Origin: an uncultured Planctomycetales bacterium
GTDB taxonomy: Bacteria > Omnitrophota > Gorgyraeia > Gygaellales > Profunditerraquicolaceae
Direction: 5' to 3'
DNA: 64,000 nucleotides
Assembly (NCBI GenBank): GCA_964427405.1
Contig: CAYRUB010000006.1
Coordinates: 15,558-79,557, forward strand
In this document: in pieces, positions 27,532-51,328 of the stretch
How the letters are laid out: the number at the start of each line of letters is the position of its first letter
Position numbering within the stretch: position 1 is the stretch's first letter
Program-made: the position numbers and the translations under genes
Notes under the pieces: model-generated
Told to the model about the DNA's origin: nothing
What the model saw: only the letters and a program-made list of their open reading frames with translations
The model's database searches: none

Positions 27532-27552
27532 TGTAATAATTTGGAGGGTCAA

Positions 27553-32173: not shown

Positions 32174-33214
32174 TTGAGCATAAAATTAATTACATATAAC
32201 GATGTTCTTCAGGAGCTACCACAGACAAAATATCTACTTTTAGGCAATGGTTTTAGTATCGCCTGTAGTAAGAAGTTTGAGTATCCAAACCTATTTGAAT
32301 ATGTCAGAAAAACCAGCCTTAGTACTCATGTATTAAAAGTATTTGAATATCTGGGCACAAATAATTTTGAAGGTGTAATGCGTTTGCTTGAGGATTCCAA
32401 ATGGATAGCAAAGCACTATGGATTGGAACGCGCTAAGGGTGTAAAGGCCTCTATTTCTAAAGACTTAACATCAATAAAGAAATCTCTTGTTTCTGCTATT
32501 GCTAAAACGCATCTTCCTAATCCTGGCACCATATCTGATGATCGGAAAAATAAATGTGTTGTTTTTCTTGAGCCCTATCAGAACGTCTTTACAACTAATT
32601 ATGATTTGTTACTTTATTGGGTTGCAAATCATGGACAAGATAAATTAAAAGAGCAAGATGGTTTTAGGGCATCTATCGATGATCCAAGCGCTGCATATCT
32701 GGTTTTTAGCGAGCATCTTGGTCAAAATAAAGGTATTTTATTTTTACATGGAGCATTGCATCTTTATGTTGAAGGGGGAGAAACCCGGAAACATTCCTGG
32801 ATAAGAAGCAGTAAGTCATTAATTGAGCTAATAAAAGAAGGTTTAGAAAAAGGTCAATACCCGCTTTTTGTTGCGGAAGGAAAAGCAGATAAAAAAATGG
32901 CTCAGATTCAAAGAAGTGGGTATTTATTTTATTGCTTAGGGAAGCTTGAGCGTATTGCAAGCCCATTGGTAGTTTATGGTTTGTCTTTCAGTGAGAATGA
33001 TCAACATATTATTAATGCGATTGCCGATAATCGTAATCTCGATCGTGTTTTTATAGGTTTACATGGGAAGATAGATAGTCGTACTAATAAGCAAATTATA
33101 CATATCGGTGACTGGATGATGAAAAGGCGCAAAGAATATATAACCAAAGGACGGAAAGCAAAGGAGCTCAATATTAGTTATTTCAGATCTGATACAGCTC
33201 CGGTTTGGGATTAA
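32174..33214 (+). CDS. SIR2-like (SIR2_2/DUF4917-like) protein, paralog A (TTG start)
   Basis: N-terminal LLLGNGFSIA (GxGxS Rossmann motif of SIR2_2). C-terminal VVYGLSFSENDQH, related to GYSxPDAD of the two paralogs. Confidence 0.5.
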   Translation: MSIKLITYNDVLQELPQTKYLLLGNGFSIACSKKFEYPNLFEYVRKTSLSTHVLKVFEYLGTNNFEGVMRLLEDSKWIAKHYGLERAKGVKASISKDLTSIKKSLVSAIAKTHLPNPGTISDDRKNKCVVFLEPYQNVFTTNYDLLLYWVANHGQDKLKEQDGFRASIDDPSAAYLVFSEHLGQNKGILFLHGALHLYVEGGETRKHSWIRSSKSLIELIKEGLEKGQYPLFVAEGKADKKMAQIQRSGYLFYCLGKLERIASPLVVYGLSFSENDQHIINAIADNRNLDRVFIGLHGKIDSRTNKQIIHIGDWMMKRRKEYITKGRKAKELNISYFRSDTAPVWD

Positions 33215-33220
33215 TAAAAA

Positions 33221-34303
33221 ATGGTAGAGGATATTATTTTCTTAGGAGCTGGTGCTTCAAGGGCAGAAGGCGCGCCTTTGCAGGCCGATTTATTTAAAGA
33301 ATATTTCAAATTGTGTAAACCTACTTTAGATAGCAGGCCGGGTGAGAAGACTTTATACAATCGAATGCGTAAATTTTTCTCTGATTTCTTTGGAATCAAT
33401 ATTAATATCGATAATCTGGATAAAGTTTCTTTTCCTACCTTTGAAGAAGCCCTAGGAATTTTAGAAATAGCTATAAGAAGAGAAGAACTCTTTAGGGGAT
33501 GGATATCAGCCTCAGCTAATTCAGACATAAAGATACAGCGTTATAGACAGAGTTTGATTTATCTTATTGGTACTGTTCTTGAGCGTGCCCTCCGAGGAAA
33601 AGCTACTTATCATCGAAGATTAGTGCAGCAATTACAGAACCAAAAAAGGCTTATCCAGACAGCTTTTATCAGTGTGAATTATGAAATATTAATCGACAAT
33701 GCCATAATGGAGTCTGAGCATATTGATTATGGAGTGCCTACTCTAAAAAGTCAAAATCCTTATTCAGAGCATTTGATGATACCTAACAAAGAGCCTATTT
33801 GCGTATATAAATTGCATGGTTCGCTAAATTGGCTTTACTGTCCGACTTGTATTTCATTAACTATTACTCCATTTACTAAGTCGGGAGCTGAGCTTGTTCA
33901 TGAATCTAAACTATGTGAAAAATGCATGAGTAAGGTAGTTCCGATAATTGTTCCACCCACTTTCTTTAAGGTTATGTCGAACCACTTTTTAGAGCAGATA
34001 TGGTATAAAACCGATGAGCTTTTAAGAACTGCTAGAAGAATCATTTTTTGCGGTTATTCCTTTCCAGATGCCGATATTCATATTAGATATTTGCTGAAGA
34101 GAGCAGAGCTATATCAAACTCGCGGATTAGAAATTTATGTGATTAATTATCATAACTCTAAAACCGTAGAAGAAGCTCGAAACGAAGTAAACCGATACAA
34201 ACGTTTCTTCAAAAATAAAGGGTCAGTTCATTATTTGCAAGGTTCGTTTGAGCAGTTTTGTGAATCTGGTAAGCCCGACATGCCCGAATTTGAATTCACC
34301 TAA
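33221..34303 (+). CDS. SIR2-like protein with Zn-ribbon insert, paralog B
   Basis: IIFLGAGASRAEGAP N-terminus, HGSLNWLYCPTC...CEKC zinc-ribbon, FCGYSFPDADIH C-terminal motif. Confidence 0.6.
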   Translation: MVEDIIFLGAGASRAEGAPLQADLFKEYFKLCKPTLDSRPGEKTLYNRMRKFFSDFFGININIDNLDKVSFPTFEEALGILEIAIRREELFRGWISASANSDIKIQRYRQSLIYLIGTVLERALRGKATYHRRLVQQLQNQKRLIQTAFISVNYEILIDNAIMESEHIDYGVPTLKSQNPYSEHLMIPNKEPICVYKLHGSLNWLYCPTCISLTITPFTKSGAELVHESKLCEKCMSKVVPIIVPPTFFKVMSNHFLEQIWYKTDELLRTARRIIFCGYSFPDADIHIRYLLKRAELYQTRGLEIYVINYHNSKTVEEARNEVNRYKRFFKNKGSVHYLQGSFEQFCESGKPDMPEFEFT

Positions 34304-34367
34304 ATCAGAGTCTGGTCTTGATTATATGTCCCGCAACCATAAGCCCTGTCAAAAAGAATAAATTATC

Positions 34368-34396
34368 TTGACAAAGCTAAAATGATTGTGTATACT
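34368..34396 (+). promoter_or_regulatory. Sigma70-like promoter TTGACA-17-TATACT
   Basis: Near-consensus -35/-10 pair with 17-nt spacing, 18 nt upstream of the ORF at 34414. Confidence 0.45.
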
Positions 34397-34413
34397 CTCT
34401 ATAGGTAAACATT

Positions 34414-35124
34414 ATGCAGACCACAGAATCCTTATGGAATACCTTAATACTCTATGAAGACCTTTTAGAGCACCTCCGCTTGAAGGGTAAGGACAAGAAC
34501 TGGTTTGATACGATCCGCACAAGATACGATATGCGTCATGAGCCGATCATCAAGCCATATGATAAGCTTATTGCATCTGGCAGAAAGAGTAAGCACGGCC
34601 GCCGGGTTTTTTACTTACAAGCTATTCTGCCATATCTTGATGAGATAATAGATCTGCATGATAAAGGCGACCTTACCTATCCAGAAATCAAAAAAAAGAT
34701 GCAAGATAAAACAGATGTTCTTAAAAGGCTGCGCGATGCGGATCTTAATGTTGACGAACAGATGGAACCTGAGAGCTTCTTTATCGATTTCCAGACAGCC
34801 AAGGCAAAGCTAGGCAGTTTCTATGGCTGGGGTGATGATTCGCAGGATATCAAGCTATTAAATCACGTATATCAGACTCGCTGCGAAGAGGGGAAGCGGT
34901 ATTTTGAATTGACCAAGAAAATACAGTGCTTGATCGCGGAAGGCCATAAAGCAGAGGTAGAGAGGCTAAAGGAAGAGCGGGACAAAGTCGGCGATACTCT
35001 TAATTACTGCAGGGCGATAATGCTTGCTTCAATAGAGCATTGCGCCGATCTTATAAAAAAGAAAAAGATAGAGATTAGAGAGGAGGATAAAGAGCATGCG
35101 CGATCCGCAGTATTAGAAGGATAG
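34414..35124 (+). CDS. Hypothetical protein (236 aa, charged/helical)
   Basis: Clean ORF with its own promoter; no recognisable domain. Confidence 0.4.
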   Translation: MQTTESLWNTLILYEDLLEHLRLKGKDKNWFDTIRTRYDMRHEPIIKPYDKLIASGRKSKHGRRVFYLQAILPYLDEIIDLHDKGDLTYPEIKKKMQDKTDVLKRLRDADLNVDEQMEPESFFIDFQTAKAKLGSFYGWGDDSQDIKLLNHVYQTRCEEGKRYFELTKKIQCLIAEGHKAEVERLKEERDKVGDTLNYCRAIMLASIEHCADLIKKKKIEIREEDKEHARSAVLEG

Positions 35125-35187
35125 TTTTTTTTGCCTATAAATGATTATGTAAATATAATTAGATAGACAAATAAAGGGAGGAGATAT

Positions 35188-35514
35188 ATGGAAGACAGAA
35201 TTAAAATCAGCTGGTGTAGAAGACTAGAACAATGGCTTGACGGTATGCCATTTGAAGAGAAGCTAAAAACGCTAGAACATGGAAGGCTGCTAACCTGTCT
35301 ATGTTGCGGGTTTACTGTTTTTGATAAGGAGAAGCCAGAGGACAGGATACAAAGGAAATGCGTAGCAGGTAGTCGTGATCATGCGTTCATGGAAAGCGAG
35401 TATTATATTATTCTCAAGCGAGGATTCTCGGGAATAGTTGATATGGTGAATTATAATCCTCCTGAAACATCGGAAGATGCCGTAGTTCGATATTTTAAAA
35501 GCAAAAGAAAATAG
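35188..35514 (+). CDS. Hypothetical protein (108 aa; Cys-containing)
   Basis: ORF with GGGAGG RBS; no recognisable domain. Confidence 0.35.
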   Translation: MEDRIKISWCRRLEQWLDGMPFEEKLKTLEHGRLLTCLCCGFTVFDKEKPEDRIQRKCVAGSRDHAFMESEYYIILKRGFSGIVDMVNYNPPETSEDAVVRYFKSKRK

Positions 35515-35550
35515 GAAACATATCAATTAACCATGACCATGGAGGTGTTT

Positions 35551-36825
35551 ATGGACATCAGAAAGATTAAGATTGAGGCGATTAATCCGGCGCCGTATAA
35601 TCCGCGTAAAGATCTTAAACCGGGAGACCCTGAGTATGAGAGCTTGAAGAAAAGCATACTTACGCATGGTTGTGTGCAGTTGCTTGTTTGGAATATCCGC
35701 ACAGGCAATCTTGCCGGCGGGCATCAGACATTTAAGGTGCAGCTTGAGCTTGGCGTAAAGGAAGTTCAGGTGTGCGTTGTTGATTTGTCTCTTGAGCAAG
35801 AAAAGGCGCTAAATATCGCCCTCAATAAAATTCAGGGAAGTTGGGACAATGAAAAACTCGCAGCGCTTTTAGATGAATTAACGAAAATACCGAATTTTGA
35901 TACAACCGTTACGGGCTTTAATGCCGTAGAGATTGGGCAGATTTTTGACCGCTACCAAGAACCTAAGGACGTGGATGACTATGATTTTCAATCGGCCCTG
36001 GATGATATTGTAGAACCAGTGACAAAAAGAGGCCAGGTAATTACGCTCGGCGAAAGGCATAAAGTTATGTGTGGAGATGCGACGAGTAAAGAGGATCTTA
36101 ATATACTTCTCCAAGGAGAGAAAGTTGCTCTTTTGGACATTGATTGGCCCTATAACGTAAATTATATGGGAGGAAGCTGCCCGCGTTCTGATACTCGTCC
36201 TAAGGGGTCTCGTAAATGGGACGCTATTTATTCAGACAATATGCCGCAAAATGAATATGAAGCATTCATGCTGAAGGTTCTTGTTAATATAAAACCTTAC
36301 TTAAATCCCGGCGCAGCTTTCTATCAGTGGCAAGCACATCGACAGCTTGGTCCGCTTTATCAGATTCTTACTCAACTTGATTTTCATGTTTCCTGCCTTA
36401 TCTGTTGGGCTAAAGAGTCAGCTGCAATATCTTATGCGGACTATAGTTTCCAGACAGAACAGGCGGTTTATGGATTTTTGAAAGGACAAAGTCACTATTT
36501 CGCAGGGAAGCCAGGCGAGTCGAATTTGTGGCAGGTAAATCGTGATTCTACTAAACTTTATTTGCATCCATGCCAGAAGCCAGCAATTTTAGCCGAACGC
36601 GCAATCAAAAATTCATCAAGACGTAATGATATAGTTCTCGATGTTTTTTTAGGATCAGGATCTGTTTTGATTGCTGCAGAAAACCTTGACCGGCGTTGTT
36701 TTGGGATGGAGCTTGATCCGCGCTATTGTGATGCGATTGTTAGGAGATATATTGCTTTCGTAGGCGTAGATAAGGTTTCGGAAGATTTGCGTAAGAAATA
36801 TCACAAGGAGGTTTCCAATGGATGA
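35551..36825 (+). CDS. ParB-like nuclease domain fused to beta-class DNA methyltransferase (phage-type ParB-MTase)
   Basis: N-terminal ParB/Srx-like region (KIKIEAINPAPYNPRK). MTase motif IV (DWPY-like) precedes motif I (VLDVFLGSGS). Start chosen at MDIRKI after GGAGG. Confidence 0.7.
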   Translation: MDIRKIKIEAINPAPYNPRKDLKPGDPEYESLKKSILTHGCVQLLVWNIRTGNLAGGHQTFKVQLELGVKEVQVCVVDLSLEQEKALNIALNKIQGSWDNEKLAALLDELTKIPNFDTTVTGFNAVEIGQIFDRYQEPKDVDDYDFQSALDDIVEPVTKRGQVITLGERHKVMCGDATSKEDLNILLQGEKVALLDIDWPYNVNYMGGSCPRSDTRPKGSRKWDAIYSDNMPQNEYEAFMLKVLVNIKPYLNPGAAFYQWQAHRQLGPLYQILTQLDFHVSCLICWAKESAAISYADYSFQTEQAVYGFLKGQSHYFAGKPGESNLWQVNRDSTKLYLHPCQKPAILAERAIKNSSRRNDIVLDVFLGSGSVLIAAENLDRRCFGMELDPRYCDAIVRRYIAFVGVDKVSEDLRKKYHKEVSNG

Positions 36826-37498
36826 TAGTAAATCAATATATGACGATGAAGAGCCTATTCTTTCTCTTATTCAGCAAATCAAAGATGGTACCTTAAATCC
36901 TAAAACTTTACCTAGGGAAAAAAGACAGTGGTGTGTAGAGTTTCTTTCTAGCGAAGGCTATACAGAGGCGCAGATTGCACAAGTAATAATGAGAGCCGAG
37001 AAAACTGTGTATCGTGATTTGATAGAGATACAGGATCGTAATGCCATGACGCCGGATATTAATTCGGCTAAACGCATTGTAGGAAATATGTTTCAGAAGG
37101 CTATGACACATCATAAGTATCTAATGCGACTTGCGCGCAACCCAGATGCTTCTAATGGAGAAAAAACTCAATCGGAGTTTCTGGCGTGGCGCGTTTTAAA
37201 GGAGGTGGTAGAAAAAATGCAAACATTAGGGTATCTTCCCCTGAAGCCTCAGGAGATTGTAGAAGATATTTTTCATCACGTAACAAATGGGAATGGTGAG
37301 GAAGGAATTACTGAAGCTAAAAATATGATAGGTGAGATTGAGCGCGCAGCAAAAGAAGCCGGAACGCTTGATCTAGAGACCGAAGAGAAGATTAGGGCTA
37401 TAAGGACAAAGATTGAGCAAGTAGAGATTAATCAGGAAATAAATAAACTCAAGAATAAAGAAAATAAACCAAATGACACAAAAGGAGACTCAAAATGA
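36818..37498 (+). CDS. Putative terminase small subunit / DNA-binding protein
   Basis: 226 aa; HTH-like AQIAQVIMRAEKTVYRDL; position immediately upstream of and overlapping terminase large subunit. Confidence 0.35.
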   Translation: MDDSKSIYDDEEPILSLIQQIKDGTLNPKTLPREKRQWCVEFLSSEGYTEAQIAQVIMRAEKTVYRDLIEIQDRNAMTPDINSAKRIVGNMFQKAMTHHKYLMRLARNPDASNGEKTQSEFLAWRVLKEVVEKMQTLGYLPLKPQEIVEDIFHHVTNGNGEEGITEAKNMIGEIERAAKEAGTLDLETEEKIRAIRTKIEQVEINQEINKLKNKENKPNDTKGDSK

Positions 37499-39126
37499 AA
37501 AATAATATCGTAAGTGACCTATCAAGGCTAAGAAGGCAGGAAGGCAGCAAGTCGCTGCTTGCGTTCGCAAAGTTATATATGAAGCATCATTTAGAATGCG
37601 AGCTATCCCCGGCTCATCTTGAAATATACCGTATTCTTGGTACAGCAACTACCGAGAGAGGTAAAAAGATTGCCATCGCCGCACCGCGCGATTTCGGAAA
37701 AAGCACTATGGTTACCTTAATTTACATGGTTTACAGTATTTGTTATTCGAAAGAGAAATTTATTGTGATTATTTCGAATACAGCTTCACAGGCAAACCAG
37801 ATATTAGATAACATCAAAAAGGAGCTAACGGAAAATGAATTGCTAAAGCTGGACTTTCCGGAAGTATTTGAATCAAATGGTAAATTTAAATTGTTGCGCT
37901 GGAGGCAGTCAGATATAATCACCCGCAATAAGGTTTTGGTTTTAGCATTAGGTTCAGGTCAGCAGATACGCGGACGCAGATTCGGAGTCGCCCGCCCGAC
38001 TTTAGTTGTGGCTGATGATTTGGAGGATTCCGAGAATACCTTTGGAAAAGAATCGCGAGATAAGATGCAAGACTGGTATGAAAAGTCGGTTTTAAAGGTA
38101 GGTTCGGAGGATACCAATTATATTTTCATTGGTAACCTTTATCATCCCTATAGTTTACTAAGCGAGTATGTTTGTCCGGATAAGTATCCAACGTGGATTA
38201 AGAGGGTGTATTCCGCCATTGTAGTTTGGCCTAGACGTATGGATCTTTGGGAGGATAAATGGGCTAACATATACAACCATAAGATAGAATTCAATGGGGC
38301 GAGCGGCCCTGTGGTAGCTTATCAATATTATCAAGAGAATCAAATAGCGATGGACGAAGGAACTGAGCTTCTCTGGAATGCGCGATACAGCTTGCACAAG
38401 CTAATGGGAATACGGCAAGAAAATGAGCTTAGTTTTCTCTCTGAATTTCAAAATACGCCAGTTAATCTCAGGGATTGCCTTCTTGACATAGACAATATCG
38501 TATACTGGGATACATCCGAGCGATCCGTTGATGACCTGCTAAAGTCATTAGGTGATAACGTAAGGTTTTATGGCGCATGCGATCCGAGCCTTGGGTTAAG
38601 CACGGTTAAGGGGGATTTTTCGGCTATTATCGTATTGGCAAAAGACGAAGCCTCTAAGACGCTATATATCATAGTAGCCGACATAGAGCGCCGGCCAATT
38701 GAAAAAATAGTTGATGATATTTTAGCTTATTCCCTGAGGTATAAATTTATTAAGTTTGGAATAGAGGGTAATCATTTCCAGCGAGTTCTTGTTGATTTAG
38801 TTAAGGAAAAGGGGGAGAAGGCAGGACTTTATATCCAGCTTGAGACAGTGATCAATAAGGATGACAAGATTGCGAGGATTCAGTCTTTGCGGACGTGTTT
38901 AAAAAGTGGGAACTTACAATTTAGCAAGAAACATAGACAACTTCTGGAGGAGTGCAGATATTTTCCGAAAGGCAAGCACGATGACGGATTGGATGCTTTA
39001 GAGATGGTAGTGAATCTATCTAATGATAATGGGTTTTCGTTCTGGTTTGCCGGCAGCACAAGGCCAAAGCCTTTCAGTGATGACGAAATAGGTCCCTATG
39101 GATACCGCGGATGGGGAAGAAGGTGA
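37495..39126 (+). CDS. Phage terminase large subunit
   Basis: ATPase P-loop IAIAAPRDFGKST, Walker B LVVADDLEDSEN, C-terminal RNase-H-like nuclease (YGACDPSLG...IIVLA...DDGLDALEM). Confidence 0.8.
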   Translation: MKNNIVSDLSRLRRQEGSKSLLAFAKLYMKHHLECELSPAHLEIYRILGTATTERGKKIAIAAPRDFGKSTMVTLIYMVYSICYSKEKFIVIISNTASQANQILDNIKKELTENELLKLDFPEVFESNGKFKLLRWRQSDIITRNKVLVLALGSGQQIRGRRFGVARPTLVVADDLEDSENTFGKESRDKMQDWYEKSVLKVGSEDTNYIFIGNLYHPYSLLSEYVCPDKYPTWIKRVYSAIVVWPRRMDLWEDKWANIYNHKIEFNGASGPVVAYQYYQENQIAMDEGTELLWNARYSLHKLMGIRQENELSFLSEFQNTPVNLRDCLLDIDNIVYWDTSERSVDDLLKSLGDNVRFYGACDPSLGLSTVKGDFSAIIVLAKDEASKTLYIIVADIERRPIEKIVDDILAYSLRYKFIKFGIEGNHFQRVLVDLVKEKGEKAGLYIQLETVINKDDKIARIQSLRTCLKSGNLQFSKKHRQLLEECRYFPKGKHDDGLDALEMVVNLSNDNGFSFWFAGSTRPKPFSDDEIGPYGYRGWGRR

Positions 39127-39613: not shown

Positions 39614-39675
39614 TTGCTATTTAACATGATTTATGGCAATGATTACCATGAGAGGAACTTATACCGGAGGTGACC

Positions 39676-40725
39676 ATGGATACAGAAAAGCGCAATGTGT
39701 GGCAAGTTGGTACTGGTAGTCAGGAGCGTTCCTACGGAAATATTTTCTTAAAATATGACGTAATGGCTGTAGGGCCGGGAGATGATGGTTTTTATAACGA
39801 GAAATTATATTCTCCTTACGGTGATATTAAAAACAGTATTAGGCGTTTTTATCAAAATGCCAAGAAAGGCGATTTAGTAGTTTTACGGTTAGGCACTGGC
39901 CAGGTGCTTGCGCTTGGCGAAATAGCGGATGACGGCCCTGTTATAAATGAGGAATTCGCTGACATTGACGACTATCACTTGCAGCATGTCCGCAGAGTAA
40001 GATGGTTCCCCAATACGGCGAAGGGTTTTCCCGTAAGAACGCTTGGTGGGCAGGTAAGAACTTTTGCAGGAGTTAACGCTTCCAGTGTACTTCGTTGGAT
40101 CGGAAGGGTGAGAGTTTCTTCTAAAGTGTTGCATAGGAAATTAAAGCATCTTCCTAAGCCATCAGTTAGTCTCTCGTCTCAGGAGTTAAAAAGAGGACTT
40201 GTTGCTTCTGGATTGTCTATGGAGCGAACTAATAAGGTTGTTAATAGACTTAATTCCTTGCGAATGATAGCGCAATGGTATAAAGATGAAGAAAAGAGAC
40301 TTGGAAAACGGCCATCTGAGCATGAAACGGTTGCTTACATGGTTATTCCATTCCTTCAATCGTTAGGCTGGATGCGCGAGAATACTGCTATTGAATGGAA
40401 TGGGGTTGACGTTGCCCTGTTTGATCGACTGCCGTCTAAAGATACATTTCTTCGCTGTGTAGTGGAGGCGAAAGCTTTTGGGAGTTCAGTCTTTAAGCCA
40501 TTTGAACAGGCTGCTGATTATGCGCGAGTAAAAGGGCGGGATCATTGTAAGAAATTAATTGTTACAGATGGAATACGCTACACATATTTTAAAAAGCAAG
40601 GTGGTGAGTTTAGTCCACAATCGAGGCCGCAAGCGTATTTGAATATCATGCGCATGAGAAAGAACTATCCTCTATATGACTGTGATGGAGCTGTGGAAGC
40701 GATTAAGGGGATGGTAATGGCATAA
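39676..40725 (+). CDS. Hypothetical protein with putative PD-(D/E)xK nuclease motif
   Basis: GVDVALFD ... CVVEAKAF (D ... ExK) in the C-terminal half. GGAGG RBS before ATG at 39676. Confidence 0.35.
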   Translation: MDTEKRNVWQVGTGSQERSYGNIFLKYDVMAVGPGDDGFYNEKLYSPYGDIKNSIRRFYQNAKKGDLVVLRLGTGQVLALGEIADDGPVINEEFADIDDYHLQHVRRVRWFPNTAKGFPVRTLGGQVRTFAGVNASSVLRWIGRVRVSSKVLHRKLKHLPKPSVSLSSQELKRGLVASGLSMERTNKVVNRLNSLRMIAQWYKDEEKRLGKRPSEHETVAYMVIPFLQSLGWMRENTAIEWNGVDVALFDRLPSKDTFLRCVVEAKAFGSSVFKPFEQAADYARVKGRDHCKKLIVTDGIRYTYFKKQGGEFSPQSRPQAYLNIMRMRKNYPLYDCDGAVEAIKGMVMA

Positions 40726-40983: not shown

Positions 40984-43900
40984 ATGGCTATCAAATCCTG
41001 CTTTATAGGTATCGATAAATATTTAGATCCTGGTATCCGAGACTTAACGGGAGCAGTTAAGGATGCAACTGTTTTATGGTCCTTATTTTCTGATACTGTC
41101 CCTTCCATACAGGCAGACATTCTCTGCAATGAACACGCCACCTTTGATCATGTGAAAAACAGTCTTTCTTCTCTTCTTGAGTCTGCTACCCAAGAAGATA
41201 CAATTATCATTTCATTTTCCGGACATGGCACAAATCACCATCGTCTCGTAACCCATAATACGTCCAAGGCAGCTCTGGATGATACCACGGTATCAATGGA
41301 TGAGCTGGCTGGTCTCTTCAGAAAATCTAAGGCCAACGCAATTCTTTTTATCCTAGATTGCTGTTTTAGCGGAGCTGTCCCCGCAAGAGTCATTGAAGAC
41401 AGCCCTGTCCCCCGGCAAGATACTTTTTCTTTTGAAAGCTTTGCCGGTAAAGGAAGAATATTAATTGCGGCATCAAGCGCCAATGAGCCAGCCTTCGAGT
41501 TACCTGGGTGCGGTCATGGGCTTTTAACAAAGGCCTTAATTGATGCATTACAAACTACAGATGATCAGGTTAACTTAGCATCGGCAATGGACAAAATTAC
41601 TCAGATGGTGAGAGCTGAGGCTGCACGCATTGGCGTAACACAAACGCCTGTTTGGTTTGGTTTCATAGAGGGAGGTTTAACTTTCCCCTCTCTTAGGCCA
41701 GGAGCTAATTTTTATAAGGCATTTCCGGAGAGCAAAGGAATTAGGATTAGTAAAGCGATCGCAGACCTGCAGGCATTTGGGATTTCCGCACCTATTCTTA
41801 TAGAATGGGCTAGGAATTTTAAAAACGGATTGAACAATCTACAACTAGAAGCAGTCAATAAGCACAGGATATTAGATGGTCAATCTTTGCTTGTGGTGGC
41901 ACCTACAAGTTCCGGTAAAACATTTATTGGAGAAATGGCCGCAGCAAAGGCAATATCTAAAGGTGAAAAGGTAATCTTTCTTTTGCCTTACCGCGCACTA
42001 GTAAATGAGAAATATGATTCTTTTGTTCAGTTATATACTGACAATTTAGGGATTCGTGTACTTCGATGCACAGGAGATTATTCTGATGAAACTGGTCCAT
42101 TTGTCCGTGGTAAATATGAAATCGCTATATTGACATTTGAAATGTTTCTCAATTTAGTCTTAGGGAATCCAACGTTATTAAGTCAGATTGGATTAATCGT
42201 GCTTGATGAAGCTCAATTCATTACGGATCCGACAAGAGGGATAACAGTTGAGTTATTGCTTACCTTTCTTTTAGCGAATGCTGAGAAAGGTATTAGACCT
42301 CAAATAATTGCCCTCTCAGCTGTCATTGGCGGTATAAACGATTTTGATCAATGGCTCGGAGTTGAGGCTATGATTTCGTATGAGCGTCCGGTACCCCTGG
42401 AAGAGGGCGTTATGGACCGTAGCGGTAATTTTCAATTTTTAACTCCTATTGCAGAAACTAAAATAACTTCATTAATTTCTTCATATAATATTGTGCAGCG
42501 GGGAAAGAATCCAAGTCAACAAGATATGATTGTTCCATTGATGCAATTCTTAATGAAAGATCTTAAAGAGAAAGTTATTATTTTTAGGAATACTCGCGGA
42601 CCCGCTGAAGGATGCGCTGGATATCTTAGTCGTGAATTAGGATTGCTCCCGGCAAATGATGTAATAGCACAATTGCCGAATCATGATCTTTCAACCACAT
42701 CTATGCATTTACGGGAATGTTTGTCCGGAGGCGTTGCTTTTCATAATACAAACCTTAACAGAATTGAAAAAGCGATTATAGAGCGTTCGTTTCGAGACCC
42801 CGCCGGTAAGATCAGGGTATTAGTGGCCACTACAACGCTGGCCGCTGGAATAAATACGCCGGCATCAACTGTTGTTTTGGCTGAACAGGAGTTTATCGGT
42901 GAAGATAACCGGCCATTTTCCATTGCAGAGTATAAAAACATGGCTGGTAGAGCTGGCAGGTTAGGTTTTAATGAGGATGGCAAGGCAATTATATTGGCTG
43001 AACAAATGCATGAAACACAGGTTCTTTTTAAGCGATACGTACTTGGAAAACCGGAGGCATTAAGTTCTTCGTTCGATTCTGAGAATGTTGAGACTTGGAT
43101 CATTCGGTTGTTGGCTCAAATTAAAGAGGTTCCCCGACATGATATTGTGCGATTACTGGCAAATACATACGGAGGATATTTAGCGAATCGCCAGAATCCG
43201 GGATGGCGAGAAAGTATAAAACAACATCTAGAGGAATTAATGGTAAAAATGTTATCGCTAGGTCTCTTGGAGCAAGAAGGAGATCTTGTACGGCTTACCT
43301 TACTGGGTCGGGTGTGTGGTCAATCTTCGTTATCGCTTCAATCTGCCATGCGACTTGTTGAATTATTAAAGTCCTTAGGGATGATCCAGGTTAGTTCTGA
43401 GTTTCTTATGGCGATTGTCCAAGGGTTACCCGAATCAGATAATACGTATACACCACTTTTCAAAAGAGGAAGCAAGGAAAGCGGAATGCCTCGGGTAGCA
43501 TCTGCCCGGGTTGGTAATGTTGTTGTTAATTTATTACAGAAGTTTGCCGGGGGAGAGATGTTTACATATTATGCCCGATGTAAAAGAGTAGCCATTTTAT
43601 TTGACTGGATTAATGGTGTGCCTACAGAAAGAATTGAGGCTGAATACACGATGAACCCTTACCAAGGTAAAGTAGGATATGGGGATATTCGGCGTTTTGC
43701 GGATGCCACTAGGTATCATCTTAGAACAGTCGCACCTATTGCTAGTCTTATTTTAGTTGATCGTTGCCCGACCGGTGAGTCAATAGATATTTTGCTAAAA
43801 CAATTAGAAGTTGGTGTGCCGAGAGACTCTCTTGATCTACTTAAACTACCAATCGGCTTTGAAAGAGGTGAATATTTGGCACTCTACGGAAAAGGTATCA

Positions 43901-44010
43901 AGACCTATGAAGCTTTCTGGGCTGTACCGGGAGAGAATCTTATTAGAATCCTTGGCTCAGATCGCGCTGCGGAAATTGAAAAGGCTCGAAGTAAATTAGT
44001 TGTTAAATAA
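40984..44010 (+). CDS. Caspase-like (peptidase C14) domain fused to SF2 (Ski2/Hel308-like) helicase with C-terminal winged-helix region
   Basis: Caspase His-Gly (ISFSGHG) and Cys (ILDCCFSGA) dyads. Helicase motifs I APTSSGKT, II VLDEAQF, III LSAV, VI MAGRAGRLG. 1008 aa. Confidence 0.7.
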   Translation: MAIKSCFIGIDKYLDPGIRDLTGAVKDATVLWSLFSDTVPSIQADILCNEHATFDHVKNSLSSLLESATQEDTIIISFSGHGTNHHRLVTHNTSKAALDDTTVSMDELAGLFRKSKANAILFILDCCFSGAVPARVIEDSPVPRQDTFSFESFAGKGRILIAASSANEPAFELPGCGHGLLTKALIDALQTTDDQVNLASAMDKITQMVRAEAARIGVTQTPVWFGFIEGGLTFPSLRPGANFYKAFPESKGIRISKAIADLQAFGISAPILIEWARNFKNGLNNLQLEAVNKHRILDGQSLLVVAPTSSGKTFIGEMAAAKAISKGEKVIFLLPYRALVNEKYDSFVQLYTDNLGIRVLRCTGDYSDETGPFVRGKYEIAILTFEMFLNLVLGNPTLLSQIGLIVLDEAQFITDPTRGITVELLLTFLLANAEKGIRPQIIALSAVIGGINDFDQWLGVEAMISYERPVPLEEGVMDRSGNFQFLTPIAETKITSLISSYNIVQRGKNPSQQDMIVPLMQFLMKDLKEKVIIFRNTRGPAEGCAGYLSRELGLLPANDVIAQLPNHDLSTTSMHLRECLSGGVAFHNTNLNRIEKAIIERSFRDPAGKIRVLVATTTLAAGINTPASTVVLAEQEFIGEDNRPFSIAEYKNMAGRAGRLGFNEDGKAIILAEQMHETQVLFKRYVLGKPEALSSSFDSENVETWIIRLLAQIKEVPRHDIVRLLANTYGGYLANRQNPGWRESIKQHLEELMVKMLSLGLLEQEGDLVRLTLLGRVCGQSSLSLQSAMRLVELLKSLGMIQVSSEFLMAIVQGLPESDNTYTPLFKRGSKESGMPRVASARVGNVVVNLLQKFAGGEMFTYYARCKRVAILFDWINGVPTERIEAEYTMNPYQGKVGYGDIRRFADATRYHLRTVAPIASLILVDRCPTGESIDILLKQLEVGVPRDSLDLLKLPIGFERGEYLALYGKGIKTYEAFWAVPGENLIRILGSDRAAEIEKARSKLVVK

Positions 44011-44084
44011 ATTAGGGCAATAAAAGATGACGGCTGTAATTTTTTAAAATAAAACATCACCATTTTTATCGGAAGTCGAATATC

Positions 44085-45728
44085 TTGAAAAAACATAAAC
44101 GTATATGGGGTCGGTGGATTTCTTATGAACCTTCATTTGCAGAGGGAGGGCAGGCACGATTGTATTTGGTTACCGATACCACTGGAGATCTCAATGGCGA
44201 ATATGTTCTTAAGGAACTCAAGAATCCTAATCGGCTGAATCGCTTTGACGTTGAACTTAAAGCAATTACATCGTTAGCTGTACATCCAAATATTGTTTCA
44301 TTGATTGATTCTGGTATTTATCGAGATCCTGATAAGCCTTGTTTCGTAATAATGAAAGCTGATCAAAATCTCGAGAAATTTATTTGTGATAATGTGATCT
44401 CAATCGATGAATTATTATTGATTTTTGATAAGATTTGCGATGGTGCAGCATATTTACATACAAATTTAATTATTCATCGTGACCTTAAACCAGAAAACAT
44501 TTTGATGTTTAAAAATGAACCTAAGATTGCTGATTTTGGGCTTTGCCTTATAGTTGACATAACAAGGTTTACCCCTTCTTCAGAAGTTATTGGTTCGCGA
44601 TTTTATATGGCTCCAGAAATGGAAGATGGCAGGCAACTAAATGTCGGTTTTGAAGTAGACGTTTATTCTCTTGGTAAAATTCTCTATTACTTGCTTTCAG
44701 GTGGCAAAATTTTCGCTCGAGAAAAATTTAATGATAAAGATTGGAAACTTTCAAGGTCAAAAGATGATTCTCGTTTAGATCTTTTTGATCCGGTTTTTAA
44801 AAAATCAATTGTTCCTGAACAAAGGAGTCGCTATAAAGATGCTAGCGAATTGCAGAAAGGATTCCGACAAGCGCGGGATAATTTTAATAAGCATCCACTA
44901 ACCACTCTATTTAAGAAGTTCGGAAGTATGAATAATGCATTCCGGGGATCAGAAGATAAACTTCAATCTATAAATGAAAACGAAATGTGCGAAATATTCA
45001 GCCATGCAAAGAAGCATGGAGTTGTTTTACCTCAAGCTGTTTTCAACGCCGCTTTCAACTCACTAACTACAAAATTGGCGCAACCATTCGCAGAGGCACT
45101 TTTAGAAAACGAGCCAACTTTAGATGCCCATTTTATTGCTATTGCAGCAGGGCGTATATTTTGTTTACCACAAGTAGAGGCAGCGTTTATTATTTGGTGG
45201 TTGAATTCTGAGCATTTTAATCGTTTAGCATTACACGCTTTAAGCTGTGCAGATAATAAGGTGTTAAATGCAATAGGGAATTGGAGTATTTTTACTCTTC
45301 AACATTGTAATGAAGTTTTGCAAAAATTGTCGGATAACTTTCATAATCTTAATTCAAAAGCGAAACAGAATTTTCTAGTTGCATCTAGAAAATCACCCTA
45401 CGAAAAAAAAGAGCAACTCCTTCTTGAATTAAGTCAAGACACTAACCTTGACAACGTTTCTCTTAGTGCAGTTGTCGCTGGATTATGTGCTTGTGCTTCC
45501 CAGACCGCAATCGCACGAGTAATTGAATTGGCTGATAGGCAAGATATGGACGAAAAGTTGACTGCCATTGGTGGCGGTATTATTTTAGGGTCGTCTAGAG
45601 ATACAGCACTACAGTTGAGCAAGCTTAGTTATAAAAACCCAGTGTTAAAGGTTCTATTGGACACATTGGATGAAGTGGAGAGTGATAATAAGGAAGATAA
45701 GGGGTTCATTGAGCAAGATGAAAAATAA
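44085..45728 (+). CDS. Hanks-type Ser/Thr protein kinase with C-terminal helical domain (TTG start)
   Basis: VLKELKN (VAIK-like), HRDLKPENIL, ADFGLC, YMAPE motifs; about 270-aa C-terminal extension of unknown function. Confidence 0.8.
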   Translation: MKKHKRIWGRWISYEPSFAEGGQARLYLVTDTTGDLNGEYVLKELKNPNRLNRFDVELKAITSLAVHPNIVSLIDSGIYRDPDKPCFVIMKADQNLEKFICDNVISIDELLLIFDKICDGAAYLHTNLIIHRDLKPENILMFKNEPKIADFGLCLIVDITRFTPSSEVIGSRFYMAPEMEDGRQLNVGFEVDVYSLGKILYYLLSGGKIFAREKFNDKDWKLSRSKDDSRLDLFDPVFKKSIVPEQRSRYKDASELQKGFRQARDNFNKHPLTTLFKKFGSMNNAFRGSEDKLQSINENEMCEIFSHAKKHGVVLPQAVFNAAFNSLTTKLAQPFAEALLENEPTLDAHFIAIAAGRIFCLPQVEAAFIIWWLNSEHFNRLALHALSCADNKVLNAIGNWSIFTLQHCNEVLQKLSDNFHNLNSKAKQNFLVASRKSPYEKKEQLLLELSQDTNLDNVSLSAVVAGLCACASQTAIARVIELADRQDMDEKLTAIGGGIILGSSRDTALQLSKLSYKNPVLKVLLDTLDEVESDNKEDKGFIEQDEK

Positions 45729-45876
45729 ATTTTACTCACTAATGTCTGTCTTTTGAACTATTCGTTCTTTGAAGCGGTAAAATTTCCCCACACTAAATTT
45801 TACCAAAACAAAGGTGGTTTCAAAAAGGAGATTGTTACAAAAAATGATTAGGACTTTTGGTATTCTTAGTTAGTTT

Positions 45877-46488
45877 ATGAATAAAACTATAATAGTTTTT
45901 AACGAAAGAGCAAGGTTTAAGGCAGAAAATGAAATGCTTATTAATAATTTTGAAATATTGAATAGGATTTTATTTGATGCTAGAAATTTTTATGAAATTT
46001 GGTTTGGCTACCTAAGGACGAAAAGTAAAAGTAAATATTTCATCACTTTTCTAAAATATAAAGATTTCTTTGAAACCATAGGATATTCTTGCATTACGAG
46101 TTTGACTATAGATTTATTTAAACTATATGACTCAGGTCAAGAATCTTATAGTATTCTTCATTTAATTAACGATATCAACGAGAGAAGCTTACTGAGTAGT
46201 ACAGATAAGAGAAATATTCGTATAAAAAAGAAGCAAGCAATAATAATATGGGGAAAAGTAAAAGAATTAAGACATAAATTATTTGCACATAGGGATAAAA
46301 ATTTAACCCTAAAAGAAATATACGCTATTGCTAATATAACGCCAAATGATTTTCGAGATTTGACTCAATATACTCTGGAAATTCTAAATTATATTGCTCC
46401 AGTGTTGCATAAGAATAAAATAAGATTCCGTAGAGAAGTGAGAAACGATGCAGTGAATCTATTACGGATACTAATGGAAGCTCAATAG
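45877..46488 (+). CDS. Hypothetical protein (possible HEPN/Abi-like, Rx5H motif)
   Basis: 203 aa, very AT-rich; RHKLFAH fits the HEPN Rx4-6H pattern. Otherwise unrecognised. Confidence 0.3.
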   Translation: MNKTIIVFNERARFKAENEMLINNFEILNRILFDARNFYEIWFGYLRTKSKSKYFITFLKYKDFFETIGYSCITSLTIDLFKLYDSGQESYSILHLINDINERSLLSSTDKRNIRIKKKQAIIIWGKVKELRHKLFAHRDKNLTLKEIYAIANITPNDFRDLTQYTLEILNYIAPVLHKNKIRFRREVRNDAVNLLRILMEAQ

Positions 46489-46518
46489 TATCCCTTTGTT
46501 AATGGGGGGTCAATATAC

Positions 46519-47334
46519 ATGTTTAGTGAAACGTTTAAAGCCCTAAACAATGAGGCACAGTTCACCAGAGAAATACTTGGCTCAGGCGCTTCACAGATTA
46601 GAAACGCTACCTACGCAACTAAGGGCATTTACTTCCAGGCATTTATAAGTCTCTCTACTGGATTTGAAAGGATCGGAAAACTTTGTTTAATGCTTGATCA
46701 TTTTATTGATCATGATGGTGAGTTTCCTGATTACAACTATATGAAGAATGAAATTAGGCACAATATATGTGTTATCTATGAAAAATCACAATCGGTGATT
46801 ACAAAACGTTCAATATCCATGAAGTTTCTGAACAACCTAAATGATCCCATTCATCAATCAATACTGAGAATTATCTCCGAGTTCGCTCAAGGAGATCGTT
46901 ATTCTAACATTGATTTGATTGTGGGGAGGCAACATGAGAGAGATCCTATCGCGTTATGGTTTATGGAAGTAGATAAGCCATTATATGAGACTCGCGTATC
47001 AAAGAAGAAAAAGGAATCTATCAATAGTAACGCCGCTGGCATTGCTTCAATACTTGACCTCTACGTCATGGTTAGGCATACATCTGAGACTGGTAGCGAA
47101 ATCACGGACGTAGAAGATGCAAGCCGCAGAACTGGAATGCAAAAAGCTGTTGTTTCGTATCGCCAGCTATATGTGCTTCAAATCATTAGGTATTGGGTTG
47201 AACTATTATCTTCTCTACAAGACATAGCAATGCAGACTGAGAGCGAAGATATTCCTTTCTTCAATGAAGTATTCGCGCCTTTTTATAACGACGACTCTTA
47301 TATTAGAACGCGAAAAACTTGGGATACTTTTTAA
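46519..47334 (+). CDS. Hypothetical protein (271 aa)
   Basis: Clean ORF; no recognisable domain. Confidence 0.3.
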   Translation: MFSETFKALNNEAQFTREILGSGASQIRNATYATKGIYFQAFISLSTGFERIGKLCLMLDHFIDHDGEFPDYNYMKNEIRHNICVIYEKSQSVITKRSISMKFLNNLNDPIHQSILRIISEFAQGDRYSNIDLIVGRQHERDPIALWFMEVDKPLYETRVSKKKKESINSNAAGIASILDLYVMVRHTSETGSEITDVEDASRRTGMQKAVVSYRQLYVLQIIRYWVELLSSLQDIAMQTESEDIPFFNEVFAPFYNDDSYIRTRKTWDTF

Positions 47335-48049: not shown

Positions 48050-48130
48050 TTCCAATGAAGAATGAAAATGGAGCTGCCTCTAATTTTTGAAAAATAGAAA
48101 GTTTGAATTTCGTTAAGGAGTGATTACTAA

Positions 48131-49825
48131 ATGATTAAGTGGATAAGAAAGATTATAGGTAATAAGAGACAAGAAAAACAATACAGTATATCGAAGGAAA
48201 AAATTGAGTATAGACTACAGAAAGAAGACACCAAGCATTACAAATGCTTTGTGTTAATGCCTATTGGTAAAGAGGGTACTGTAGAATACTCAAATAATAT
48301 GCTGGTATTCCATGAGATAATCAAACCCTGTGTAGTTAATAGTGGCTATGCTATTGACTGTTATTATTTAGATTTAGTCTCAGAATCTGGAGATATAGCT
48401 AAACAGGGGATACTAGCTTTAAAAGATGATACTATTGTAATAGCAGATTTAAGGCGTAGAAATCCAGCAGTAAGCTATGAATTAGGCATAAGACATACGC
48501 TTGGCAAGAGATCCATATTGGTTTGCTCAAGTCAATCCGATCATTTTTTCTATACTATCAGACATCGGGCTATTAAGTATAAAATAGATGGAACTTCTAA
48601 TCAGGAATTTTATGATAAATTATCATCTTGTATTGAGGACATATTAATTAATCCAGAAAAATCAGACAACCCTGTAAGCGATATTTTAGGGGGTATTAAT
48701 AGCATTGCTGGAGTGCAGTTATTAGAAAGGGAGGAATCCGGAGAAACAAAAGTGGTTACTTCTGATAAAGAAAAAGATTTCCACCGGTTAGTAGCGGCTG
48801 GAATACAATATGAAAATGTTAATAGACACGATTTAGCTATTGGTTGTTTTGAGGATGCTTTAAAAATAAAACCCGATGATATAGGTCTTCATATTCAGTT
48901 GAGTATTATATACGGTGAGAAGGTCGGAGATAGAAGTAGTAAAGAAAAAGCAATAGAGCATTGTAAGGACGTATTAAGGATTGATAAAAACAATATTTCA
49001 GCAAAGTTTAATTTAGCTATATATACGAATCATTTAAAGGGTTCGAAAGAAAGCTTGCCAATTTATTTAGAAGTTGAGTCTTTAATTAGAATGCAAGGGT
49101 TATTGGGTTCGGAAATAGATGGAAAGTCAAATCTTTTCATAGGACATGATTATAAGAATGCGGGAGACAAGCCAGAGGCTGAAAAACGTTATGAAAAGGC
49201 GATAGCCATATTAAAGAAACTAGTCGATCAAGGAGATAAGGGAAGCGCTTTTTGGTTAACTGATGCAAAAAAGAATTTAAGAAGTATTTTTAAAATAACT
49301 TCTATTTTGAGTGACGAAGAAACAATATTTGTTAATTCAAGTACAGTCATTTTACTTCCGACAAATATTAAATCAGTTGAAGCTTCGATTCATCCTCTAT
49401 GGAAGCAATTTGATCAGAGGCAGCCGGAATTAGAAGGCGCAAAGTGGATTGCAGATCGCCCGACAATAACTAATGAGGAAGCTTTAAAGGGGGGAATATA
49501 TACATTTACTAGAGAATTTGATTTTAACTCTGAAATTGCGCAATTGCGTTCAGCAGAGATATGTTTACTTGTTGACGATTTTTGTGAATTAATAGTAAAT
49601 AGCACACGATTGGGGAGAGTTCATGGATATGAGGAATTACATAGATTCGTTATTACGCAATACATCAAAAAAGGCAAAAATATCGTTCAGTTTATAGTAG
49701 AGAATATTGCAGCTGAAGAATTTAATGATCCCCATAAGAACCCAGAGTTTTATAAATCCACTGAGAAATATCTTTTTAATCCATATGGTTTGAAATATTC
49801 AATTATTTTAGAGTATAGATGTTAA
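48131..49825 (+). CDS. Nucleoside 2-deoxyribosyltransferase-like (TIR/SLOG-related) domain + TPR repeats + C-terminal domain
   Basis: N-terminal CFVLMPIG...NPAVSYELGIRHTLGKRSILV resembles the Nuc_deoxyrib_tr catalytic-Glu region. Central TPR-like repeats (LAIGCFEDALKIKPDD...). Confidence 0.4.
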   Translation: MIKWIRKIIGNKRQEKQYSISKEKIEYRLQKEDTKHYKCFVLMPIGKEGTVEYSNNMLVFHEIIKPCVVNSGYAIDCYYLDLVSESGDIAKQGILALKDDTIVIADLRRRNPAVSYELGIRHTLGKRSILVCSSQSDHFFYTIRHRAIKYKIDGTSNQEFYDKLSSCIEDILINPEKSDNPVSDILGGINSIAGVQLLEREESGETKVVTSDKEKDFHRLVAAGIQYENVNRHDLAIGCFEDALKIKPDDIGLHIQLSIIYGEKVGDRSSKEKAIEHCKDVLRIDKNNISAKFNLAIYTNHLKGSKESLPIYLEVESLIRMQGLLGSEIDGKSNLFIGHDYKNAGDKPEAEKRYEKAIAILKKLVDQGDKGSAFWLTDAKKNLRSIFKITSILSDEETIFVNSSTVILLPTNIKSVEASIHPLWKQFDQRQPELEGAKWIADRPTITNEEALKGGIYTFTREFDFNSEIAQLRSAEICLLVDDFCELIVNSTRLGRVHGYEELHRFVITQYIKKGKNIVQFIVENIAAEEFNDPHKNPEFYKSTEKYLFNPYGLKYSIILEYRC

Positions 49826-50245
49826 GGAGATATTCAAAAATAATCTTTTTCTCTTTCTCTAAAATCGTGGGACTTTTTTGAAAAAGACACAGCTTGGCGA
49901 GACGTGGATAAAGCAGGTTACTTCTTTTAAAAAATAGAAACACCCGTAATTTATAGTCAAACGAATGAATTAAGATTAAAATGGGATATGCAACTCCCTG
50001 GACTCCCAGTTTATCGGGGGAGCGAGGTGCTGTCGGAGCTCGACGTATCTGCGCCGAGCTCCTACTCAGGGTAACAGGCGACAGTGCCCAAACAGGTTCA
50101 CATATACAGTATACAACAATGCTAGAGGGATTCTTTGTTTCAATCATAGTACAGATATTGGATTATATCAATTCTACAGAATATTTTAACTCTTTTGCGT
50201 TAGAATAAATAAGAGCATGCTAATTCATAAGCTAATGAGGGAGCT

Positions 50246-51328
50246 ATGTCAACAGCCATAATATTAGGAGCTGGTTTTTCTAGATGTGCAGGTTTACCAA
50301 TACAGAGTGAATTCTCTAAATTCCTTTTATCTCCAGAACTTTCCCGAACAATTTTAGAGAAAACAATTACAGAGGTTATTAGTGCGTTTATTAGTGATGT
50401 TTTTGGATGGAGACGTGGCAAGCCATTTCCAAGCATGGAAGACTATTTCACTTGTTTAGATTTATCGGCTAACACCGGTCACCACTTAGGAATTCAGTAT
50501 ACTCCTAAAAAATTAAGAGCTATTAGAAGAATGACGATTTATAGAATTTTTCAAATATTGGATTATAACTATCGAAATTCTTCAGAAATAGCGCATTTTT
50601 TAAAGATGGTTTTTAATAAAGGGACTCCAGGGTTTATTGTGCTTAATTGGGATATTGTTTTGGAAAAAGCAATCCATCTTCAACCATTAAGAAATAAAAT
50701 TAACTATGGTTTTGAGTGTTATGAATGGGATACAAAACGTAGGAAAAACTTTGAAGATGACGATATTTTTGTATCAAAGATAAATGGATCTAGCAATTGG
50801 GTGTATTGTGAAAACTGCACAAGCATATTTTATGATCTTAGTACAAAAATCGCTCTTCATAAAATGATGGGTCTTATAAAAGCAGATTTTAGATTATTTA
50901 GAGAAGGATTTACCGATAGACATTTCGATGAAGCGCTGGGGACTTCTCCTCAAAGCCGAAAATGTCATTTTTGCAACAATATGTTAGCAACGCATATTGC
51001 TACCTTTAGTTTTAGAAAATCGTATAGGACATTTGCCTATCCTGCTATTTGGCATAATGCTCAAAGCATATTGTCTAAAAGCAATGAATGGATCTTTGTT
51101 GGTTATTCACTACCAGATGCTGATTTTGAATTTAAACATATATTAAAAGTTTCCGAATTAGCGTTACGGAAAAAAAAGAATCAGCCCCCTCTTAAGATTA
51201 ATGTAGTGGTAAAAAATGATAATGCTGCAAAAAATAGATACCAATCATTTTTTGGTAACCGAATAACCAAAATATGGCAGGGCGGTCTTCAGGAGTTTGT
51301 AAAGAAAAATACAATGAGCAGGAAATAA
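50246..51328 (+). CDS. SIR2-like protein with Zn-ribbon insert, paralog C
   Basis: IILGAGFSRCAGLP N-terminus, NGSSNWVYCENC...CHFC zinc-ribbon, FVGYSLPDADFE C-terminal motif. Same length (360 aa) as paralog B. Confidence 0.6.
   Translation: MSTAIILGAGFSRCAGLPIQSEFSKFLLSPELSRTILEKTITEVISAFISDVFGWRRGKPFPSMEDYFTCLDLSANTGHHLGIQYTPKKLRAIRRMTIYRIFQILDYNYRNSSEIAHFLKMVFNKGTPGFIVLNWDIVLEKAIHLQPLRNKINYGFECYEWDTKRRKNFEDDDIFVSKINGSSNWVYCENCTSIFYDLSTKIALHKMMGLIKADFRLFREGFTDRHFDEALGTSPQSRKCHFCNNMLATHIATFSFRKSYRTFAYPAIWHNAQSILSKSNEWIFVGYSLPDADFEFKHILKVSELALRKKKNQPPLKINVVVKNDNAAKNRYQSFFGNRITKIWQGGLQEFVKKNTMSRK

Follow-up and report, generated by a model that had tools for sequence, protein, structure and literature searches.

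The locus studied here raises the question of whether three SIR2-like genes that lie close together belong to multi-gene systems with the genes beside them, are copies of one effector, or stand as separate genes. They lie in the window, a stretch of 64,000 nucleotides (positions 15,558 to 79,557 of contig CAYRUB010000006.1) from an uncultured Planctomycetales bacterium, and start at positions 32174, 33221 and 50246. We denote them D, E and G, and we denote as F the gene at 48131, upstream of G. The original prediction, made from the letters of the DNA, had described the three as paralogs and as the modular reuse of one NADase effector with different partners (HerA/NurA/methyltransferase in one case and an "NDT-TPR" protein in the other). 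The reading that we favour, with some reservation, is that D, E and G are three independent genes for defence by consumption of nicotinamide adenine dinucleotide (NAD), gathered as cargo on an island that has a serine recombinase.

Fold, pocket and zinc module of the three proteins

The three genes and a feature that follows G are:
32174..33214, + strand: D, a DUF4917/PDC-S21 protein with the SIR2 fold, 346 amino acids (aa) (profile matches and AlphaFold2 (AF2) model)
33221..34303, + strand: E, 360 aa, a SIR2_2 protein whose zinc module has four Cys (Pfam SIR2_2)
50246..51328, + strand: G, a SIR2_2 protein of a sister family with a four-Cys module, 360 aa
51602..51638, + strand: a terminator-like hairpin after G with a 15-bp stem (consensus scan only)

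The start codon of E lies 6 bp downstream of D. The open reading frames (ORFs) of E and G both encode 360 aa on the + strand, as predicted, and all of the motifs that had been quoted for them were found in the translations. E carries GAGAS at residues 9-13, HGSLNWLYCPTC at 199-210, CEKC at 232-235, and CGYSFPDADI at 277-286. G carries GAGFS at 8-12, NGSSNWVYCENC at 180-191, CHFC at 240-243, and VGYSLPDADF at 285-294. Common to both are GAGxS at the N-terminus, the zinc ribbon (H/N)GSxNWxYCxxC…CxxC, and the C-terminal GYSxPDAD. The translation of D contains LGNGFS at 23-28 and GLSFSEND at 269-276 and has no Cys ribbon.

BLASTP aligned E and G over their full length at 25% identity (E-value 3e-23), and the alignments of the E family (A3) and the G family (A1) matched each other in hhalign with a probability of 100% (E-value 2e-72). 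The shared motifs therefore occupy homologous positions and do not reflect chance, in agreement with the original prediction, which had named pairwise alignment as its check. Neither family shows variation in four Cys, in the GxGxS loop, in the Asn of N(Y/W)(D/E), or in G-Y-S-x-P-x-x-D; the Cys concerned are C207, C210, C232, and C235 in the E family. Our searches found at least 1,653 clusters at 90% identity in the E family and at least 765 in the G family. The best reading is that E and G represent two sister families of one uncharacterised SIR2_2 clade that retains the canonical sirtuin zinc module. A local duplication of the SIR2 genes, the sense in which they had been called paralogs, was rejected because of the low identity of E to G and because each has its own orthologues elsewhere, at 50-86% identity.

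The SIR2 fold is supported for all three proteins, by profiles for E and G and by the AF2 model and Foldseek for D, as the description of three SIR2-like proteins had proposed. Mapping onto the SIR2_2 and DUF4917 models, another suggested check, placed E above the SIR2_2 threshold (PF13289; 33.2 bits against a gathering score of 24.5), G alone below it (18.4 bits), and D in DUF4917 (PF16263; 173 bits, residues 21-345 against model positions 1-311). G was linked to E through the comparison of family profiles. The best sequence match of E in the PDB was 8w9l (PsSIR2) and its top PADLOC model was Aga_SIR2 class II (47 bits, full length), while D matched the PADLOC model PDC-S21 with 330 bits. The figures listed beside this evidence for the SIR2 fold were 19.5 for PsSIR2 (8w9l), 16.3 for the SIR2 of E. 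coli Nezha, 16.0 for the canonical Sir2-Af1, 15.0 for PfSir2A, 14.0 for SirTM, 13.2 for ThsA, and 9.9 for FAM118B.

D had been called a more divergent relative, and this was upheld by structure. BLASTP found no detectable similarity of D to E or G, and hhalign related D to E weakly (E-value 0.068, probability 0.8%), though with GxGxS and NYD in register. We therefore rejected a D-E relationship drawn from sequence alone; structure was needed. In Foldseek the AF2 model of D (pLDDT, the predicted local distance difference test, of 90.7) matched, first among PDB entries, the SIR2 of E. coli SIR2-HerA (E-value 1.5e-9), followed in order by KomC, ThsA, DSR2, and SIRT2. Since the top matches of the model are defence SIR2 structures, D has the SIR2 fold. 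Several proteins of the E family bear precomputed matches to both PF13289 and PF16263.

We then examined the catalytic pocket, using PsSIR2, in which the catalytic residues are N163, D165, and H212 (PMC11472057). N153, E155, and H199 of E align to these residues in the phmmer alignment. D retains GxGxS (24-28), N142-Y-D144, and H192; in the alignment of its family H192 is invariant and at least 90% keep N142, and 112 out of 120 relatives have the His motif. G retains N134 and D136, and its catalytic His is replaced by N180. The pocket on which a SIR2 assignment depends is thus complete in D and E, while G lacks the catalytic His. The original prediction had correctly reported an HGS/NGS motif but had missed what the Asn of G implies at this position, and its idea of one NADase effector is at odds with the loss of that His.

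The replacement is not confined to G. Among its 120 best relatives, 104 have His and 16 have Asn at the catalytic-His position, and all 16 Asn forms are among the 21 sequences closest to G (P0001-P0021). These variants are 57-80% identical to G, are full length, are interleaved with His forms in a rough neighbour-joining tree, and keep all other invariant residues. Because these residues are kept, the Asn forms look like working proteins for which the general base is dispensable. This leaves G with either His-independent chemistry or weakened catalysis.

The four-Cys element of E and G occupies the position at which canonical sirtuins bind zinc. The first CxxC begins 8 residues after the His position, and in E the second CxxC follows about 22 residues further on. 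E and G therefore have the CxxC…CxxC ribbon that follows the catalytic-His position in canonical sirtuins, and the "Zn-ribbon insert" that had been described is no novel insertion, as it stands where the ancestral zinc module of sirtuins lies. The corresponding positions of PsSIR2 hold no Cys. The zinc module has been reported absent from the bacterial SIR2 of SIR2-HerA and Thoeris systems (PMC11472057) and missing from SIR2_2 proteins generally (PMC12700824); in the literature it has been linked to deacylase or protein-substrate function and said to have arisen with the shift to protein deacylation. The unusual point is the presence of the module in a SIR2_2-type protein, and E and G contradict the published generalisation. 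The C-terminal motif, which had been presented as special to E and G, is generic to SIR2_2, with CGYSYKD in PsSIR2, VGFSFTD in ThsA, and GLSFSEND in D.

E and G differ in other respects from canonical zinc sirtuins (Sir2-Af1 1ici, Sir2Tm, SIRT1-7) and from SirTM. They had no match to the canonical SIR2 family of Pfam (PF02146), NCBIfam deacylase models gave 17.5 and 15.4 bits against cut-offs of 243 and 221, and the sequence search of the A3 and A1 profiles against the PDB reached no canonical sirtuin. Further differences are a long helical insertion that separates GxGxS from N-Y-D, the SIR2_2-type motif at the C-terminus, and the location on a mobile island, and G lacks the His.

Gene contexts of the three proteins

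The genes that had been proposed as partners, and related triads on plasmids, are:
27541..29682, + strand: HerA-like (DUF87) ATPase, 713 aa, the first gene of its module (Pfam DUF87, 50 bits)
29679..31034, + strand: NurA-family nuclease, 451 aa, overlapping the HerA gene by 4 bp (Pfam NurA, 46 bits against a gathering score of 21)
31034..32122, + strand: N6/N4 DNA methyltransferase (MTase), 362 aa (Pfam N6_N4_Mtase, 59 bits; PADLOC MTase_II)
48131..49825, + strand: F, with an N domain at about 10-190, TPR at about 200-388 (TPR matches), and a jelly-roll-like C domain at about 390-562
L146 6962-11738 and L147 2880-9353: HerA-NurA-MTase triads on plasmids of Halorarius (an archaeon) and Deferribacter (a bacterium)

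We sampled 82 distant E loci (41-52% identity), comprising 80 loci from a metagenome scan together with L005 and L007. None of them contained a homologue of D (DUF4917), HerA, or NurA, and a weak MTase match within 2 kb of E was found in only one (L085). The neighbours varied, and some of the genes were in large multi-gene clusters. One such cluster recurred in L067, L081, L104, and L110. Two genes precede E in it, the first for a 1215-aa protein and the second for one of about 1300-1430 aa; after E come a gene for about 730-880 aa and, on contigs that extend far enough, another for about 680 aa. In L110 the second protein has 687 aa, the contig stops short of the 1215-aa gene, and the gene directly after E appears as split ORFs. 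In Geobacter sulfurreducens (L005 8761-11041) two E-family SIR2_2 genes, of 386 and 346 aa, lie in tandem, so that D-E is not the only kind of two-sirtuin pair.

Close relatives of E (76-86% identity) were found in six contexts, including the window:
Window: HerA-NurA-MTase-D-E
L004: 376-aa protein-HerA-MTase-D-E
L143: LmuB-like ATPase-D-E, with D and E 95% and 86% identical
L149: GHKL ATPase-D-E
L142: type I restriction-modification (RM) system-GHKL ATPase-E, without D
L150: ParB_N-367-aa protein-E-GmrSD, without D

D and E are adjacent in four of these six contexts, behind four different upstream genes, and HerA is present in two. D-E is thus a frequent but non-obligate tandem. In a further locus, L144, D is preceded by a type I RM system. 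Members of the D family stand alone on 25 prophage-like IMG/VR contigs that carry no HerA or NurA, and searches of IMG/VR for the E family and HerA found no loci. Between the window and L004, D is 88% and E 82% identical, whereas HerA shows only a local identity of 35%, the MTase is 32% identical, and NurA has no significant counterpart.

We rejected an obligate partnership of HerA with E or D, because it was found with none of the 82 distant E genes and none of the 25 D genes and relatives have other upstream genes. HerA was also absent from 30 other G-family loci. The HerA-NurA-MTase genes recur without any SIR2 gene. HerA homologues of 31-35% identity adjoin NurA on plasmids, with the pair kept on five plasmids; the triads are ordered DUF87-NurA-like-MTase on the Halorarius halobius plasmid and MTase-DUF87-NurA on the Deferribacter desulfuricans megaplasmid, both without SIR2. 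Three cyanobacterial plasmids (Calothrix, Tolypothrix, Nostoc) match both HerA and NurA, and the one region inspected among them, that of Tolypothrix, has no SIR2 gene. The HerA-NurA-MTase set is a module of its own that happens to lie upstream of D-E, and the HerA/NurA/MTase partnership was not supported by this comparison. The occurrence of the module on mobile DNA suggests a restriction-modification-like role. In the window the DUF87 and NurA genes overlap and the pair is kept on plasmids, which recalls the archaeal and bacterial HerA-NurA end-resection complex, but here and on the two plasmids the pair accompanies a DNA methyltransferase on mobile DNA, and the restriction-like role that this suggests is not described in PADLOC. 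PADLOC HerA models scored the ATPase at 63 bits or less, and no PADLOC model matched NurA. A literature search combining HerA, NurA, SIR2, methyltransferase, and phage returned nothing.

For the G family we sampled 29 loci from a genome scan and two further looked-up contexts. When every island protein was searched by tblastn, a homologue of F was found only on the contig of the window itself and beside none of the 30 other G-family loci. All-against-all clustering of the neighbours across the 31 loci found no shared family beyond lineage-specific synteny, with the sole exception of a small GTPase in five related Bacillota metagenome-assembled genomes. The neighbours ranged from Pycsar, RM, and HEC-05 genes through to housekeeping genes. 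F was therefore rejected as a partner of G, and with it the pairing of G with an "NDT-TPR" protein. Residues 1-200 of F matched nothing in Pfam, NCBIfam, PADLOC, or PDB sequences, and stand-alone homologues of its N domain had no Pfam match, which leaves the NDT label putative. The full architecture of F was found in only one other representative of clusters built at 50% identity, and hundreds of proteins contain its modules singly or otherwise combined. Motifs of the N domain are CFVLMPIG … NPAVSYELG. The 420-bp gap between F and G contains a GC-rich stretch of about 110 nt (49990-50100) with a perfect 8-bp hairpin (GGAGCTCG, 12 nt, CGAGCTCC). This stretch had no Rfam match and no repeat elsewhere in the window, and its fold z-scores were only -1.4 and -2.2.

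Taken in a loose sense, the modular reuse that had been proposed agrees with the many contexts of E-family genes; the partners that it named are mostly unsupported.

The island and its other cargo

The region from about 24.8 to 56.2 kb of the window (24730-56270, about 31 kb) is an integrative island adjoining tRNA-His. Its main features outside the cargo are:
24730..24804, + strand: tRNA-His, the probable integration site and left island edge (ARAGORN, Rfam)
25118..26728, - strand: large serine recombinase, directly after tRNA-His (Pfam Resolvase, Recombinase, Zn_ribbon_recom)
26737..27210, - strand: DUF2924 protein, companion of the recombinase (Pfam DUF2924, E-value 3e-33)
35533..39126, + strand: ParB-MTase, TerS-like 226-aa protein, and large terminase, downstream of the cargo slot (phrog_498, E-value 7e-114; phrog_38 TerL, E-value 1e-89)

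The recombinase and DUF2924 genes are followed by an HTH_17 gene and then by cargo genes, and the same recombinase-DUF2924 pair flanks the related elements L004 and L144. The ParB-MTase/TerS-like/TerL backbone is syntenic in L004, L143, and L144, with different cargo. No portal or capsid genes were found in the island. Host genes resume at 56270 with a KdpD-like kinase, a response regulator, and TrkH. The island family resembles satellite-like or degraded-prophage elements with a slot for defence cargo.

Relative to L004, about 14 kb of the window (39.7-53 kb) are additional and hold a caspase-Hel308 fusion, a Ser/Thr kinase, a HEPN AbiU2 protein, F, and G. The fusion (40984-44010, 1008 aa) joins an N-terminal caspase (Peptidase_C14, EACC1-type) to a Hel308/Ski2-like helicase that is HamB-like in PADLOC, and it is preceded by a 351-aa protein (39670-40725) with a weak DUF8426 match. 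In a row from 44085 to 47334 lie a PD-T4-6/mad6-like Ser/Thr kinase of 547 aa with a long C-terminal extension, the HEPN AbiU2 protein, and a 271-aa protein. A DUF4238 protein and the 280-aa protein that follows it (53182-55204) are also paired in L004 (16726-18860, 79% and 58% identity), and the pair appears to be island backbone or another cargo module. Outside the island, a tmRNA gene (transfer-messenger RNA; Rfam, 167 bits) lies at 16111-16517. Its ARAGORN tag peptide, at 29 residues, is unusually long and does not end in the usual Ala-Ala; the resume codon may be mis-called.

Alternative explanations and implications

The explanation that we favour draws on the folds, homology, and motif conservation of the proteins, the lack of conserved partners, and the structure of the island. 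From fold, motifs, and context we infer consumption of NAD+, a role in defence, and a mode of activation. Several anti-phage modules, independent of one another, would have accumulated in the cargo region of the island; D, E, and G would be three separate single-gene SIR2-fold modules, and F would be an unrelated neighbour of G. All three sirtuin-fold genes probably consume NAD. In D and E, the GxGxS loop and the N..D/E..H pocket may hold NAD+ for cleavage upon phage infection, and NAD+ depletion or ADP-ribosyl transfer would then halt phage growth. No separate trigger domain is encoded, and activation may occur by relief of small-domain autoinhibition or by oligomerisation, as in other defence SIR2 proteins. 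The defence context in the island consists of the PD-T4-6-like kinase, HEPN AbiU2, the caspase-helicase, and DUF4238. The SIR2_2 fold and motifs are shared with ThsA (Thoeris), DSR1/DSR2, SIR2-STAND (Avs5), pAgo-associated SIR2, and FAM118 ("SIRim"/SIR2_2) NADases, and so, by assumption, is an NAD+-depleting defence logic. Unlike those proteins, which have no zinc module, E and G carry one, and all three are about 350 aa long without a SLOG, STAND, APAZ, or C-terminal sensor domain or a conserved partner.

Several points weigh against this explanation, and some of them favour a single system. The genes from HerA through NurA, MTase, and D to E share one strand and are spaced by -4, -1, 51, and 6 bp, with no terminator-like site between them, so the five could form one operon. 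Two of the four D-E cassettes, in the window and in L004, sit behind a HerA-MTase module, and among solved structures D and E are closest to the SIR2 subunits of SIR2-HerA, which also give the best structural and sequence matches of G. On this evidence the five genes might encode an expanded SIR2-HerA (Nezha-like) complex, in which a HerA hexamer would scaffold and activate the SIR2 NADases and the NurA nuclease, with self DNA marked by the MTase; that HerA can carry different effectors is known from SIR2-HerA and DUF4297-HerA (PMC11472057, PMC11291478). We consider this unlikely. D-E lies behind an LmuB-like ATPase in L143 and a GHKL ATPase in L149, HerA and MTase are far more diverged than D and E between the window and L004, and HerA-NurA(-MTase) occurs on plasmids without SIR2. 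HerA is also missing from all of the distant E loci, and the NCBIfam models of the known system (PDB 8w9l, 8j4u, 8sub) gave low scores (HerA_antiphage 35 bits against a cut-off of 800, SIR2_antiphage 28 against 500), in addition to the difference in zinc cysteines between PsSIR2 and E or G. In annotation it is preferable to list the HerA-NurA-MTase module and the SIR2 genes as distinct candidates.

Other points bear on the activity itself. The NAD-consuming activity of E and G is predicted, and with the mixture of defence and housekeeping genes around its relatives a defence role of G is not established. D is a full-length member of DUF4917/PDC-S21 and already a catalogued candidate, distinguished in the clade of the window by often being followed by E. 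A literature search on PDC-S21 returned nothing, and SliP of C. jejuni, the one DUF4917 protein studied, was reported to be a protein deacetylase and not an NADase (PMC10421069); its description as a secreted deacetylase gives it a role unlikely for a gene in a defence island. E and G might thus be sirtuins directed at proteins, acting as ADP-ribosyltransferases or deacylases and not as bulk NADases, with the zinc module binding a phage or host protein substrate, and D could be a deacetylase like SliP. The four invariant Cys at the canonical position and the published tie of the module to protein substrates agree with this, and the interchange of His and Asn in the sub-branch of G argues that the general base is dispensable there. 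Yet deacylation requires the His that G lacks, the canonical Pfam and deacylase models did not recognise E or G, no macrodomain or other SirTM-type partner adjoins them, and the island context and the best matches favour NADase-type defence SIR2. We therefore regard a protein-directed activity as improbable. It is very improbable that G has lost catalysis altogether and persists as a SIR2 relic, or serves as a decoy or regulator that binds NAD, with the three-gene pattern having no shared functional meaning. Asn in place of the equivalent of PsSIR2 H212 and the SIR2_2 score below threshold would fit such a relic, but all other pocket and zinc residues are invariant, and the kept residues, full length, and interleaving with His forms of the Asn variants indicate purifying selection on a working protein.

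Co-orientation inside cargo hotspots is an unsafe basis for inferring multi-gene systems, which is a warning for annotation. With the natural His-to-Asn variants of the G family, the mechanism of catalysis can readily be probed. The E and G families provide a test case for whether zinc-bound sirtuins of this kind are NADases or protein-modifying enzymes used in defence.

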